A DNA stretch of 64,000 nucleotides from Dehalococcoidia bacterium (GTDB lineage Bacteria > Chloroflexota > Dehalococcoidia > Lucifugimonadales > UBA3495), in contig OZ220699.1 of NCBI GenBank assembly GCA_965116565.1, forward strand, positions 3,658,858-3,722,857, given 5' to 3'. Shown piece by piece: positions 20,648-61,331 of the stretch. Below the pieces are notes generated by a model. It saw nothing but the letters and a program-made list of their open reading frames with translations. It made no database searches and had not been told where the DNA came from. How positions within the stretch are numbered: position 1 is the stretch's first letter; every line of letters begins with the position of its first letter. The translations under genes and the position numbers were made by a program.

Positions 20648-21502
20648 GCGATCCTGACCCCAGACGCCGAAACCAATTCGGCTCCTGCCGGCCACGCGGG
20701 AGCGCACGGGCGCGGTTGCAACGTCGACCGCGCCCGTATTGTCACCGTTCCGACCGGCGATCGCCCACATTATCGGCGGCGGCCGGCTACGGAACGGACC
20801 AGACCATCGCGCACCACAGCCGACACCACGCGCATGCCCCAGAGCAATCGCACCTGGGATTGGGATGCCAATCGCTCCCGGGAAAACCGGAACGCAGAGG
20901 CCGCGGGAATAGCGATTGCCGGCACGCCGCATGGAGGAGCCATCAATGGCAATGCGATAGCCGGGAGGCGAGTTCGCGGTATGTGTGTTGGGTCTGAACG
21001 GTTTTTTGGGTTGGTGTTTCGTTAGGGTTTCTCCTTTTGGTGATGGGGATTTTTGGGTTTTCGGCGTCAGGTTGTGGTTCGGGTCGATGGTCCGCCAGTG
21101 GCGGCTAAACTCAGCACGGCCCAGGCTGGTTTGGATTGAGCAGAAAGCTATAGTCCTAGGCTTCCATGTCCTCGCGGTCAGCCGGCTAATGGAACCGGGG
21201 CAATGCGAACACGGCGCGGTGGTGACATCCGCGGGGTTCCGGGAGATCAGTCGGGGAATAAACCGACTCTCGGCCCCTTGGGAACCATATTCTGCTGTCG
21301 GTTACCCGACAAGCCGTTTTTTGACCCGAACCCTTGTTGACACCTCGCTATGTTTCCATGGTTTGGTGAACGCCGCTGCTAGCGATGCGGCGACCCCGCC
21401 CGGTTCTCGAGCGCCGGTTGGGGAACCTGACATAGGTAGGATAGAACGTGGGTACTGCGTGGGGCAACGGGCGGGTGTCACACCTTGAAAATTGTTTTTC
21501 AT

Positions 21503-37730: not shown

Positions 37731-37920
37731 TCAACTCGCTCCAATCGCCCGAACGCACGCTCACCAGTGCTCCGATCCAAATCGAACGCCATCCCGCTCA
37801 TCCCGTCCATACCGTCCATCCGTGCAAACTAAAACCGGCGACACCTCGCCGTTGCCCTTGCTTGGCTGACCTCGCTATCCTGTATTCATCTAGATAAAAC
37901 GCGCGTTAGCAACCCGATCA

Positions 37921-38221
37921 AGAGAGGCAGGACCCAAGCATCGACGGCCAACCCCGTCAGTAAAAATCGCAACCGGCCCAGGTGGCAACCGCCGCTCAAA
38001 GACCTCACTCCTCACCGGCATGAGCCCCACTGGTGTCCCCGGGACTGTCCGAGCCCGCGCGCAGGTGTGCACCAAGCGCACTGAGTACACGGAAAAGTAG
38101 GTCAAATAGTTGCGTGCCCAACCCGGCCGTACGCTGACAACGATGCGCAGATCCTGCCTCTCGCCCAATCATCCCGAAACCCAATCGACGAAACCCGAAG
38201 GAGAAACCCCACCGAAACACC
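37921..38221 (-). repeat. 301-bp repeat unit, copy 1 (inverted relative to 59664-59964)
   Basis: A hand alignment of its reverse complement to 59664-59964 gives 297/301 identities. Confidence 0.95.
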
Positions 38222-38521: not shown

Positions 38522-39475
38522 ATGCCACAAGCAGGGATCCCATCGGAACAGGATGTGTTGGGCTGGTTCGACAGCCTGTCCAACTGGGGCCGCTGGGGCG
38601 ACGATGACGAGCTTGGCACCCCCAACCTGATTACGCCCGAGAAAACCAGGGCCGCCCTGGCCACCGTCGAGGAAGGCCATTGCGTGTCACTCTCCCGGGA
38701 CATCACATGGGATCCCGCCGTCGACGTGCCGGCCCCGCCCGTCCATTACATGATTGAGAGCGGCGAGGGCTGGGCCACCGGCGACAAGGTCTCCAACCGC
38801 CCTTCCGCCGTGGCCATGGACTACATCGGCATGATATTCCACGGCGTTTCCGTGACCCACGTCGATAGCCTCGCCCACTTTTTCTGGAACGGCAAAACCT
38901 ACAACGGCAAACCCGCCCACATGGTCTCCACCAGCCTCGGCGCGACCGTCTGCTCCGTGGAACAGGCCCACAAGGGATTCATCACCCGCGGCGTGCTGGT
39001 CGACGTCCCGTTCGTTCGCGGGATCGATTGGGTGGAACGTGGTGAAGGCGTCATGCCCGACGATATCCTCGCCGCCGAGGAACGGTGCGGGTTCCGCATC
39101 GAACCGGGCGACGTCCTCCTCGTGCGCACCGGCCAGTTGCACCGCCGCAACGTCGAGGGGCCCGTGCCGCGCGAGGCCGGGTCCACCGCCTGCCAGGCCG
39201 CCTGCCTGCCCCTCTTCAGGGAACGCGACATCGCGGTGCTCGGCTCCGACACCGGCAACGACGTCAGCCCTCCCCAGTATCCCGGACAGTTGACCAATCC
39301 CATTCATCAGGTTTCCATCACGGCTATGGGCCTGTGGATCCTCGACAACGCCAACCTCGAAGAGGTCGCCGAGGCATGCCGGGAACGGAACCGCTGGACC
39401 TTCATGGTCAGCATCAACCCCCTGCGCATGCAGAACACCACAGGCTCCCCCGTCAACCCGGTGGCGGTGTTTTAG
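38522..39475 (+). CDS. cyclase-family protein (kynurenine-formamidase-like)
   Basis: ..GTPNLITPEK.. and ..FHGVSVTHVDSLAHFFWNGK.. are typical of the putative cyclase family. Confidence 0.7.
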   Translation: MPQAGIPSEQDVLGWFDSLSNWGRWGDDDELGTPNLITPEKTRAALATVEEGHCVSLSRDITWDPAVDVPAPPVHYMIESGEGWATGDKVSNRPSAVAMDYIGMIFHGVSVTHVDSLAHFFWNGKTYNGKPAHMVSTSLGATVCSVEQAHKGFITRGVLVDVPFVRGIDWVERGEGVMPDDILAAEERCGFRIEPGDVLLVRTGQLHRRNVEGPVPREAGSTACQAACLPLFRERDIAVLGSDTGNDVSPPQYPGQLTNPIHQVSITAMGLWILDNANLEEVAEACRERNRWTFMVSINPLRMQNTTGSPVNPVAVF

Positions 39476-58476: not shown

Positions 58477-59304
58477 TCATTTGGCGAGGATGCAGTAGTG
58501 GTACAAGCCGGCCAGGGGCGCCAAGGCCTCGGCGAATTTTGGTGCGTGGAGAGCGCCGATTTCTTCCATGCCGCCCGACTGGATAAGTTGGAGCGGAGTA
58601 TTGCGCTCGAATGCCGTGGGGTCGTCAAAGCCGGTGGTGAAGGGCGTGAACTGTCTGTAGAAATAGTCGAAAGCGGCGGTAACGCTGCCGACCCCGCTGG
58701 ATCCATGAATCACGCTCGTCGACATGTAGTCGAAGGCGATGGTGAAGGCGGGCAGGTGGGTTGCCAGTTGACCCAGGAATTCGAAGATCAGGTCCTGAGG
58801 CAAGTACATGGTGTTGCCTTCCCAGATGAACAGGGAGGGTGAATCCGGGTCGAAGCCGGCTTCCAGCAATTTCTCGGGCAGGTTGACGTCCAGGTAGTCG
58901 CAGGGGACGGCGGGCCAGAGTTGGAGTCCGTGGCGTTCCAGAGTCTCGCGTTTGTACCGGATGACTGCCGGTTGGTCAACATCGAAGAAGGTCACGTCGT
59001 CGGTTCGGAAGATGGCGGGACGGGTATCGAAGCCGGAGCCCACGGATACGATCTGTTGCGTGCCCTTCGCAATGGATGATTTCACCAGTTCCCGAAAGAA
59101 CAGCAGGCGGCAACGGATCAGGTCATCGAATTCGGGGCAGACTTCGGCAAATCGCTGGGCGGCAGGCCTGATCTCATCGGGGACGAACCACTGGGCGAAG
59201 GGGTCGTCAAACAGGGAGTCAGGCCGATTGCGCTCGGCGTCGCGGAACCAGGCGATGAAGAAGGCGGTCTTGCCCACGTCGTTGATATCGATGGTGGTGG
59301 TCAT
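58477..59304 (-). CDS. class I SAM-dependent methyltransferase (leucine carboxyl/O-methyltransferase-like)
   Basis: ..TAFFIAWFRDAERNRPDSLFDDPFA.. and ..QIVSVGSGFDTR.. fit the LCM/TIGR00027-type family as remembered. Confidence 0.65.
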   Translation of the reverse strand: MTTTIDINDVGKTAFFIAWFRDAERNRPDSLFDDPFAQWFVPDEIRPAAQRFAEVCPEFDDLIRCRLLFFRELVKSSIAKGTQQIVSVGSGFDTRPAIFRTDDVTFFDVDQPAVIRYKRETLERHGLQLWPAVPCDYLDVNLPEKLLEAGFDPDSPSLFIWEGNTMYLPQDLIFEFLGQLATHLPAFTIAFDYMSTSVIHGSSGVGSVTAAFDYFYRQFTPFTTGFDDPTAFERNTPLQLIQSGGMEEIGALHAPKFAEALAPLAGLYHYCILAK

Positions 59305-59663
59305 GGTTATACCTCATTGGGATGTAGATGTATGGGACATGGAGTGGTATGACGCCATCCGGACAGATATCAGCCGGCTTCAAGGTTATGTTTAAATTAT
59401 AGCAATGAACGTCGTTCCGGAGGACATGGGTTGATCCTCCGGCGACGGTTGGGGATGGACTCATCATTGGACAGCCACCCGCATATGCGGACGTTCCGCA
59501 GGATGAGCGGTTGGGGTGATGGCGACGGACCGTTTTTGCGTCCACTCCGCAAGGTGTCGGTTGGTCGATGCGCGGTGGTGTTTGGGTTGGCTTGCTCCCT
59601 GGGGGTTTTGGCGATTGGTTTTTTGGATGATGGTTCGACAGGCTCACCATGAGCGGGGTGGTG

Positions 59664-59964
59664 GGTGTTTCGGTGGGGTTTCTCCTTCGGGTTTCGTCGA
59701 TTGGGTTTCGGGATAATTGGGCGAGAGGCAGGATCTGCGCATCGTTGTCAGCGTACGGCCGGGTTGGGCACGCAACTATTTGACCTACTTTTCCGTGTAC
59801 TCAGTGCGCTTGGTGCACACCTGCGCGCGGGCTCGGACAGTCCCGGGGACACCAGTGGGGCGAATGCCGGTGAGGAGTCAGGTCTTTGAGCGGCGGTTGC
59901 CACCTGGGCCGGTTGCGATTTTTACTGACGGGGTTGGCCGTCGATGCTTGGGTCCTGCCTCTCT
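59664..59964 (+). repeat. 301-bp repeat unit, copy 2
   Basis: 297/301 identical to the reverse complement of 37921-38221. It has a GT-rich 59-nt leader plus a core closed by an 11-bp stem (59723-59733 pairs with 59953-59963). Confidence 0.95.
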
Positions 59965-60271
59965 GAATTGGGGTATGGAGCACGTGCTTGATCTAGACAG
60001 TATTAGAATATACGTTCCGCAAGGGTGTGTCAAGGGGTCGCGGCGTCGGATTTTGCGTGGGGTTACAGGTACACGGATGCGCGGGTTGCAAATGCAGGTC
60101 GGGGATGCCAGACGCGGCAATCTTTCGATTCCATGGTCGGCTCCAGTCCGGAGGCTCACCCCTGGATTCACCGAAAGGCGACCCGGGGACGCGGCCGTCG
60201 ATGGAGCCAGGATCGGGAGATGCAACCAAGGGAGCGGCATCGACCGAGCGAAAGCGGCTCAGGCCGCAGGG

Positions 60272-60300
60272 TTGCAATTGGCGTTTTTGTTTCGTACAAT
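60272..60300 (+). promoter_or_regulatory. sigma70-like promoter TTGCAA-17-TACAAT
   Basis: Exact 17-nt spacer, 29 nt upstream of ATG 60329, which is preceded by AGGAGG. Confidence 0.5.
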
Positions 60301-60328
60301 CGTGCTGTATAGAACAGGAGGTCGACAA

Positions 60329-60571
60329 ATGATCAACGACGACACGATGTACGCGGATTCCCCGGCGCATGGCCTGCCATCCGATGCGGGGCGGATGATC
60401 GCCCGGTGGCGCGCATTGGGATGCCCTTACATTGAACTGGACGCGGGCGTGGTGGTCAGCAACCTGGAGCGTTGGCTGTACAATGATGCACCGCATTCCG
60501 GCGCGTGGCTGGCGCGAGTGCGCGAATATCTCTACATCGACACCTATGGGGTCGGTGCAATGGCGGCGTGA
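60329..60571 (+). CDS. 80-aa hypothetical protein
   Basis: ATG after AGGAGGTCGACAA. This is the protein-like tail (MINDDTMYADSPAHGL..) of the long track ORF 59717..60571, whose upstream part is repeat-derived. Confidence 0.4.
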   Translation: MINDDTMYADSPAHGLPSDAGRMIARWRALGCPYIELDAGVVVSNLERWLYNDAPHSGAWLARVREYLYIDTYGVGAMAA

Positions 60572-60578
60572 ACTGCAT

Positions 60579-61331
60579 ATGATCCTCCGGCTGTACAGCG
60601 ATCTGGCCCACCTGTGGCCCATCATCAGCCCGCCGGAGGAATACATGGTCGAGGCGCAGGAGTGGCTGGAGGTGATCCGCGCGCGGGTGGGGACCGGGCG
60701 AGATTCAGCGCCGGGTCTTCCGACACTGCTGGAACTGGGTTGCGGGGGAGGACACCTGCTGTCGCACCTGACCGAGCATTTCATCACCGAGGCGGTGGAT
60801 GTGTCGCCGCAGATGCTGGAGATTTCGCAACGACTCAATCCGCAGACGCTGCATCACGTGGGCGACATGCGCGACATCCGGCTGGGCCGGGAGTTTGACG
60901 TGGTGGCGATCCACGACGCCATCAATTACATGACCACCGAGGACGATTTGAGGGCTGCAATAGTGACGGCAGAAGTTCACCTGAACCCGGGTGGGCTGGT
61001 ATTGCTGGCGCCGGACTGCATCCGGGAGACGTTCACCGGGCCACGGGTGGTTGAATGGACGCGGGAGGCCGAGGACCGGTCGGTCACGTTCATCGAGTAC
61101 ATGGGCAAGCCACGGCCGGCATCGACCACCATCGAATCGGTTTTCGTGTTCGTGATCGACGAGGACGGAGAAATCAGGGTGGAAGTGGACCGGCACACCG
61201 GCGGGCTGTTTCCGACGGAGACCTGGCTGAACCTGCTGGATGCGGCCGGGCTGGACGCGGAGTACATCCAGACGAACGCCTACGAGGGCGGGTTCGGGGG
61301 GAATTTGTTCGTGGGGAGGAAGGCGACGTAA
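60579..61331 (+). CDS. class I SAM-dependent methyltransferase
   Basis: LLELGCGGGHLL motif I plus VVAIHDAINY. Start placed at ATG 60579. Confidence 0.7.
   Translation: MILRLYSDLAHLWPIISPPEEYMVEAQEWLEVIRARVGTGRDSAPGLPTLLELGCGGGHLLSHLTEHFITEAVDVSPQMLEISQRLNPQTLHHVGDMRDIRLGREFDVVAIHDAINYMTTEDDLRAAIVTAEVHLNPGGLVLLAPDCIRETFTGPRVVEWTREAEDRSVTFIEYMGKPRPASTTIESVFVFVIDEDGEIRVEVDRHTGGLFPTETWLNLLDAAGLDAEYIQTNAYEGGFGGNLFVGRKAT

Follow-up and report, generated by a model that had tools for sequence, protein, structure and literature searches.

The 301-bp repeat at 59664–59964 of the window (the whole 64,000-nt stretch of DNA analyzed here, G000:C1:3658858-3722857, from a genome of 3.87 Mb with 62% G+C) is, on balance, probably a solo unit: it would carry, without the gene, the structured RNA that acts as leader or partner in a HEPN-like module. 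The module may resemble type III antitoxins, and its RNA part has been multiplied. Copies of the unit share a conserved architecture and a fold supported by covariation, the RNA is linked to genes of one protein family, and the RNA multiplies without the gene. Searches of Rfam 15, Pfam, NCBIfam, PADLOC, and PDB assigned no described family to either the RNA or the protein, and a full-text literature search found no published description of the pair.

The structured core of the unit comprises 245 nt (59720–59964, minus strand; copy 1). A second copy lies in the window in inverted orientation. Its core (37921–38165, where the sense strand is the plus strand) is 98.8% identical to that of copy 1, and the unit around it (37913–38221) is 98% identical to the copy 1 unit. 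The preliminary description treated the unit as a two-copy repeat, but the genome contains 14 full copies of the core, with 90–99% identity and on both strands, as well as a divergent copy at G000:917676-917936 and a truncated 3′ piece at 159629–159669. At G000:159300-159630, an element copy is cut at core position 204 by a coding-looking stretch, possibly an IS helper gene, which may be an insertion into that copy. A coding reading of the unit itself was ruled out by frame-breaking indels. The open reading frame drawn across it, which had already been judged not protein-like, is not a gene because near-identical copies carry 1-, 2-, and 3-nt indels.

Alignment of the flanks of 77 copies from ~15 genomes revealed modules outside the core that are conserved in every species. 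Their order on the sense strand is a sigma-70 promoter, a palindrome, the core, a C/A-rich linker, and an AAAGGAG box with a conserved tail (AAGCCAACCGAAACACC or a close variant). From the order of linker and Shine–Dalgarno (SD) box in the family, it follows that the GT-rich segment previously taken for a 5′ leader is the antisense of the linker and SD box, which lie 3′ of the core. The promoter of copy 1 (60005–60033, minus strand) consists of a −35 box TTGACA (60033–60028), a 17-nt spacer, and a −10 box TATTCT (60010–60005), agrees with the sigma-70 consensus at 10 of 12 positions, and points leftwards into the core; it is the sole strong promoter owned by the unit and lies on the strand opposite the one on which the unit had been read. 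Copy 2 carries a second promoter type (37852–37881, plus strand), with TTGCCC at 37852–37857, an 18-nt spacer, and TATCCT at 37876–37881, which recurs in several species, each time joined to the core variant of its own genome. Over the family, TTG[AC]CN-N16-18-TANNNT ends 36–42 nt before the core in 103 of 135 distinct copies. The nearby plus-strand promoters noted earlier do exist as promoter-like sites (60272–60300, ~308 nt from copy 1, and 37730–37702, ~183 nt from copy 2) but are not part of the repeat and belong to neighboring genes.

Between promoter and core, copy 1 contains the palindrome AGCACGTGCT (59979–59988, minus strand), at ~+15 to +25 of the predicted transcript, and copy 2 contains two palindromes on the plus strand, ATCTAGAT (37888–37895) and AACGCGCGTT (37898–37907). 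A perfect palindrome of at least 10 nt occupies this interval in 100 of 135 distinct copies, usually in the form AAAC-NNNN-GTTT with a center that is itself palindromic (AGCT, GTAC, GCGC, or ACGT), and in some copies it is replaced by a longer hairpin, ATCCGCC-CCAG-GGCGGAT. Across family copies, the 10–12-nt palindrome changes in sequence yet stays perfect down to the central four bases; a palindromic center is not something that a hairpin loop needs. The perfect palindrome may reflect an RNA dimerization site, an operator, or arm-to-arm DNA repair.

On the other side of the core, copy 1 has its C/A-rich linker at 59688–59719 and its SD-like box and tail at 59664–59687 (AAGGAG at 59687–59682, then the conserved tail AAACCCCACCGAAACACC), all on the minus strand, and the linker, AAGGAG (38198–38203), and tail of copy 2 span 38166–38221 on the plus strand. 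Of 133 copies, 98 have A[AG]GGAG no more than 160 nt beyond the core (median distance, 35 nt). The linker varies between copies in length and sequence and is always G/T-rich on the plus strand; in copy 1 it is the antisense of the GGGTTTC repeats. GGGTTTC indeed starts at 59676, 59689, and 59703, as reported, and the window contains four spaced GGGTTTC pairs, exclusively inside the two copies (chance expectation, 0.01). The suggestion that these repeats form a protein-binding array is not supported, however: the array is not conserved beyond a subset of this genome's copies, and what is conserved across the family at the site of the triplet is GGYTTTCTCCTTTGGGG, the antisense of AAAGGAG, and not the triplet itself. 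Of the proposed structured RNA or protein-binding module, the structured RNA is well supported by covariation, the GGGTTTC binding array lacks support, and the orientation is inverted. A separate repeat, the REP-like 25-mer GGTTCGACAGGCTCACCATGAGCGG (59632–59656), abuts the unit. This 25-mer occurs at >30 independent sites of the genome, frequently as tandem copies spaced 26–27, 73, and ~100 nt apart, and often adjoins the element tail; three tandem copies lie upstream of G000:3167381.

The fold of the core was evaluated as 70 pairs in 11 helices on an alignment (A2) of 100 distinct copies in comparison with 500 shuffles. The fraction of pairing cells was 91.8%, compared to 86.2% in the shuffles, and 29 pairs had changed on both sides, compared to 23 expected. 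Collection of homologs for covariation, which the preliminary description had proposed, yielded 416 double-change cells in these 100 copies, compared to 151 expected. None of the 500 shuffles reached the observed pairing, both-side changes, or double-change cells, and slid controls paired at 33–38%. By these measures, the core is well supported as a structured RNA. Rfam 15 covariance models gave no relevant match at E ≤ 10 over 59000–60600 and, with the abiF motif included, no match at E ≤ 0.5 for three other leaders; the preliminary description had seen no RNase P, tmRNA, or SRP signature.

In plus-strand coordinates of copy 1, helix P1 is the perfect 11-bp stem that had been reported at the ends of the core, GAGAGGCAGGA at 59723–59733 with TCCTGCCTCTC at 59953–59963. 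Helix P2 (59739–59744 with 59942–59947) is the clearest, occurring as GCAUCG/CGAUGC, GCUUCG/CGAAGC, ACUUCG/CGAAGU, GGAUCG/CGAUCC, and CCUUCG/CGAAGG. Helices A (59755–59760 with 59936–59941; ACGGCC/GGCCGU), B (59747–59751 with 59925–59929; GUCAG/CUGAC), and C (59771–59776 with 59912–59917; CGCAAC/GUUGCG) are invariant within the main family. Leaders of other subfamilies carry variants of all three: GCGGCC/GGCCGC for helix A; GUCGG/CCGAC, GUUAG/CUAAC, UUCAG/CUGAA, and GAUCAG/CUGAUC for helix B; and CGCU/AGCG and GCAGAA/UUCUGC for helix C. In 23 divergent leaders, 100% of the 248 cells of helices A and B pair and 4 of 11 pairs have changed on both sides, compared to 0.3 expected (a level reached in 0 of 500 shuffles); the A and B blocks were extracted via motif anchors, which favors their detection, but the compensatory variants were not selected for. 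The strands of these helices run in the order A5′-B5′...A3′-B3′ along the RNA. Because A and B cross and both covary, the comparison indicates a long-range H-type pseudoknot directly atop P2 and P1. Copies of the element from G017 and other genomes (e.g., L077, L098, and L099) have one to three units of a 15-nt mini-hairpin, CCGCCAGAGGCGGAC, inserted between P1 and P2, apparently another small repeat for which the P1/P2 junction is either a target or a tolerated site.

Promoter, SD box, and gene all lie on the strand opposite that of the preliminary description (minus for copy 1, plus for copy 2), and this sense strand is quite probably transcribed, perhaps alongside an antisense RNA. Pair statistics alone do not fix the strand, because the G·U evidence runs both ways and canonical pairing is nearly equal: canonical cells make up 91.8% on the plus strand and 90.3% on the sense strand, with individual pairs split between strands. 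Both one-sided changes in helix A give G·U pairs on the sense strand, and at several positions of hairpin Hx and helix 10, A·C pairs on the plus strand are G·U on the sense strand. By contrast, helix P5 (CGUGU/GCGCG) and inner P1 have conserved G·U pairs on the plus strand only. The plus strand also folds more stably in all eight subfamilies (single-sequence MFE of −117 versus −97 kcal/mol), and a terminator-like hairpin lies on it ~70–85 nt beyond the copy 2 core. These last features would suit a small plus-strand RNA that is itself the functional product, antisense to the leader and regulating the HEPN-like mRNA in the manner of type I antitoxin RNAs. We consider such a product improbable, as no promoter-like site on the plus strand precedes the core in the window or in the family alignment, the G·U pairs of helix A, hairpin Hx, and helix 10 fall on the other strand, and the conserved promoter, SD box, and gene point the opposite way.

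A protein gene follows the core in the same orientation in 14 of the 98 copies with enough flanking sequence, and the remainder (86%) are solos. The linked copy of this genome has its core at 2414571–2414817 and its gene at 2414955–2415467, and the divergent copy at 917676 is also gene-linked (protein encoded at 917006–917578). At gene-linked loci, the SD box is followed after 7–9 nt by an open reading frame of one and the same family, which starts 45–63 nt after the core. All genomes of the genus that were searched for the protein (31 of 31) encode it, with 1–18 copies each. We also counted upstream motifs at 30 protein loci from as many genomes, 29 of which had enough upstream sequence. GGCCGT-N(1-9)-CYGAC was found 85–240 nt upstream of the start codon at 26 of these 29 loci, 18 of which also had ACGGCC-N-GTCAG 150–300 nt further upstream; both motifs occur together in 0.23% of random 830-nt genome pieces. 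The linkage between RNA and protein gene is tight.

A genome usually has one or two gene-linked copies, and its solos share a sequence subfamily with one of its own linked leaders; for example, the 19 copies in G011 match the leader of the G011 gene (L239). Both window copies are solo units that have no protein gene. The window also contains a solo of a second leader subfamily (21040–21480, minus strand) with a TTGCCC-18-TATCCT promoter, ACGGCU...GUCGG and GGCCGU motifs, and the same AAAAGGAGAAACCC..CGAAACACC tail. This solo is a relative of the leader that precedes the HEPN-like paralog at G000:3066235, and the 3′ strand of its helix B looks degraded. Elsewhere in the genome, three ~1.37-kb units with 95–99% identity (G000:C1 around 2218231-2219598, 1538000-1539350, and 3408612-3410077) consist of a promoter, a ~550-nt leader, and a 242-aa HEPN-like paralog, with nothing else. 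These units extend from just upstream of the −35 box to just past the stop codon, and no inverted repeats or duplications were noticed at their ends on inspection.

The linked protein is about 190–240 aa long and, depending on the subfamily, starts with AUC, UUG, or AUG. In the element-linked subfamily, the start appears to be AUC from alignment of the N-termini (IGTV.HHQ versus MGT..HHQ). At G000:2414940-2414960 and at L037–L039, L043, L070, and L086, the reading frame apparently begins ..AAGGAGAAAnCGCC AUC GGA ACC.., aligned with the AUG of paralogs, which would be a rare non-canonical start. Searches with the protein sequence gave no match in Pfam, NCBIfam, PADLOC, or PDB. A collection of 5.8 billion clusters yielded the query and 58 homologs, all of them lacking both a functional name and a Pfam domain, and only 117 clusters (50% identity) matched among 1.84 billion representative proteins. 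An AlphaFold2 model calculated from 29 sequences (mean pLDDT 86) has five long helices in residues 3–121 and a less confident C-terminal part, which contains a conserved HP..C.GC motif (His/Cys). HEPN domains dominated the top Foldseek matches of this model in the PDB, but with E-values of only 0.03–1. The best match was AF_0298 (2hsb; target-normalized TM-score 0.77, rmsd 2.5 Å), and further HEPN matches were TM0613, TT1696, ST0689, and MNT-HEPN toxins (among them PDB entries 1o3u, 1ufb, and 1wol). The invariant residues of the protein are H5, H6, S10, H39, R55, R57, R107, and R110; the canonical HEPN motif Rx4-6H is absent from them, and the nearest arrangement, R35-x3-H39, does not fit it. 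We use the label HEPN-like because the Foldseek E-values are weak and there is no invariant Rx4-6H motif; the model weakly suggests a HEPN-like protein with a helical N-terminal domain.

By BLAST, 16 of the 24 genomes sampled from the genus contain the core (1–25 matches each, 71–93% identity), whereas it was detected in none of 16 other families of the order. A search of 300 other genomes of the class with a signature pattern gave three single matches, about the level of a reversed-pattern control. Within the genomes searched, the RNA family is confined to one genus. Records that contain a conserved 20-mer are uncultured Dehalococcoidia/Chloroflexota metagenome-assembled genomes, and some isolate names (SB0662 and MFD, for example) hint at sponge and soil samples. 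Cores within a genome are 95–99% identical and the flanking modules are much less alike; there are two old promoter types, each joined to the genome's own core variant. This pattern suggests either gene conversion limited to the core (concerted evolution) or lineage-specific bursts with module shuffling afterward.

The multiplication of the unit invites comparison with mobile DNA. MITEs and the Correia elements of Neisseria are multicopy intergenic units of 150–500 bp with terminal inverted repeats, a built-in promoter, and presence/absence differences between relatives, and the unit described here is likewise multicopy and intergenic, with inverted repeats, a promoter, and presence/absence between relatives. 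At the orthologous methyltransferase locus (58477–59304), for example, G000 and G022 carry the element but G061, G016, G018, and G060 do not; insertion edges are not readable at this locus because synteny breaks off and the intergenic sequence has diverged too far. In a MITE-like non-autonomous element, P1 (11–13 bp) would be the terminal inverted repeat, the palindromes would be DNA hairpins of transposition, the promoter would be incidental cargo, and the gene-linked copy would be a "master". Such an element would account for this locus being occupied in two genomes and empty in four, for 14–25 near-identical copies per genome at unrelated loci, and for one linked copy with many solos per genome, as in IS with MITEs. 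It would also account for the terminal inverted repeat (perfect over 11 bp, and ~13 bp in most copies) and for G·T and A·C mismatches that are about equal, as under selection on double-stranded inverted repeats. We nevertheless regard a MITE-like element as unlikely. No target-site duplication flanks the 14 copies, and the left flank is itself a conserved module. The promoter, palindrome, and SD box are conserved outside the inverted repeats, and outside them too lies the linked protein, whose predicted fold is HEPN-like and not that of a transposase, and for which no IS family gave a match. A genome search found no longer parent element, the ends occurring solely at 245-nt copies, and the crossing covarying helices amount to a pseudoknot, which would be senseless for a DNA hairpin. 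The unit shares with REP/BIME/REPIN sequences the character of an abundant intergenic palindromic repeat, and a genuine REP-like 25-mer adjoins it, but its core is ten times longer and folds into a complex set of helices, and the unit brings a promoter and SD box of its own.

The position of the copies relative to genes was considered as well. A co-oriented gene lies on the sense-downstream side of 13 of the 15 copies of this genome, and none of the copies lies between convergent genes, which would be consistent with a portable cis-regulatory leader, that is, a riboswitch- or thermosensor-like 5′ UTR with its own promoter controlling whichever gene follows. Candidate targets in the window would be the methyltransferase gene (59304–58477) and a cyclase gene starting at 38523. 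The downstream genes are functionally unrelated, however, and lie 170–800 nt away with promoter-like sites of their own, often beyond REP-like repeats, and the copies are 95–99% identical, unlike independently evolving riboswitches. A structured leader upstream of one gene class, as in riboswitches, is found for the HEPN-like genes, yet 86% of copies precede none of them. We judge control of arbitrary downstream genes to be very unlikely.

The known systems closest to the preferred reading, an RNA partner of a HEPN-like protein, are RNA antitoxins. In ToxIN-type type III systems, ToxI consists of tandem 34–36-nt RNA repeats that form a pseudoknotted RNA, ToxN is an endoribonuclease with a ToxN/Kid-like fold, and a terminator between RNA and toxin gene sets the ratio of the two. 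The module described here resembles ToxIN in its order of promoter, RNA, and protein gene, in its pseudoknotted RNA, and in RNA–protein co-evolution, seen here as subfamily matching per genome; it differs in that the protein is helical and HEPN-like. TRF found no tandem repeats in the core, and a weak 12-nt ×2 repeat was present in the linker only. No hairpin with a U-run was seen between RNA and reading frame in the linked copies, and the short distance from core to start codon leaves no room for a type III terminator. In the AbiF/RCd22 system of Clostridioides difficile, which is type III-like, the HEPN-family (Abi_2) toxin AbiF is neutralized by an upstream structured ncRNA (PMC12373285). 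As in that system, a structured RNA here lies directly upstream of, and co-oriented with, the gene of a small protein, in this case one with a predicted HEPN-like fold. The differences are that neither sequence nor covariance model relates the RNA to the abiF motif and no Abi_2 match was obtained for the protein, that a single pseudoknotted domain of ~245 nt stands in place of two short motifs, and that most copies are orphan RNAs with no accompanying gene.

In the scheme that we favor for the solo units, the minus-strand promoter of copy 1 would drive an RNA consisting of the palindrome or hairpin, the ~245-nt domain, an unstructured C/A-rich linker, and the SD box, with the domain closed by P1 and P2 and clamped by the A/B pseudoknot and helix C. 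In the complete unit, this RNA would be the 5′ leader of the HEPN-like protein gene. It might act as the cognate partner of the protein, whose binding would neutralize or autoregulate, as with type III and AbiF RNA antitoxins, and the P1/P2 stem might be where processing frees the RNA from the mRNA. By analogy with these systems, we infer that the RNA restrains its protein by binding, and the weak AUC and UUG starts would fit a product that needs to be kept scarce. The solo copies would then be orphan RNA genes whose transcripts work in trans on resident copies of the protein, or they might be mere hitch-hikers. A more far-reaching reading, which we consider unlikely, is that of a new selfish or defense module in which a HEPN-like effector is checked or guided by a large pseudoknotted RNA. 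The RNA gene, bearing its own promoter, would have become amplifiable independently of the protein, to 10–25 orphan copies per genome, kept matched to the protein by concerted evolution, as a mobile-like "antitoxin family" or a new form of RNA-dependent mobility.

Our results describe a structured RNA family of ~245 nt, absent from Rfam and tied to an uncharacterized protein family, in which seven helices covary and a long-range pseudoknot is supported. This RNA family accounts for a conspicuous "ORF-poor, hairpin-rich" intergenic class in these soil and sponge genomes. If the RNA neutralizes or guides a HEPN-like RNase, RNA-antitoxin biology of the type III/AbiF kind would extend to Chloroflexota. 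In that case, it would be the RNA partner and not the protein that multiplies, which would bear on the evolution of toxin–antitoxin systems, defense modules, and repeat elements.
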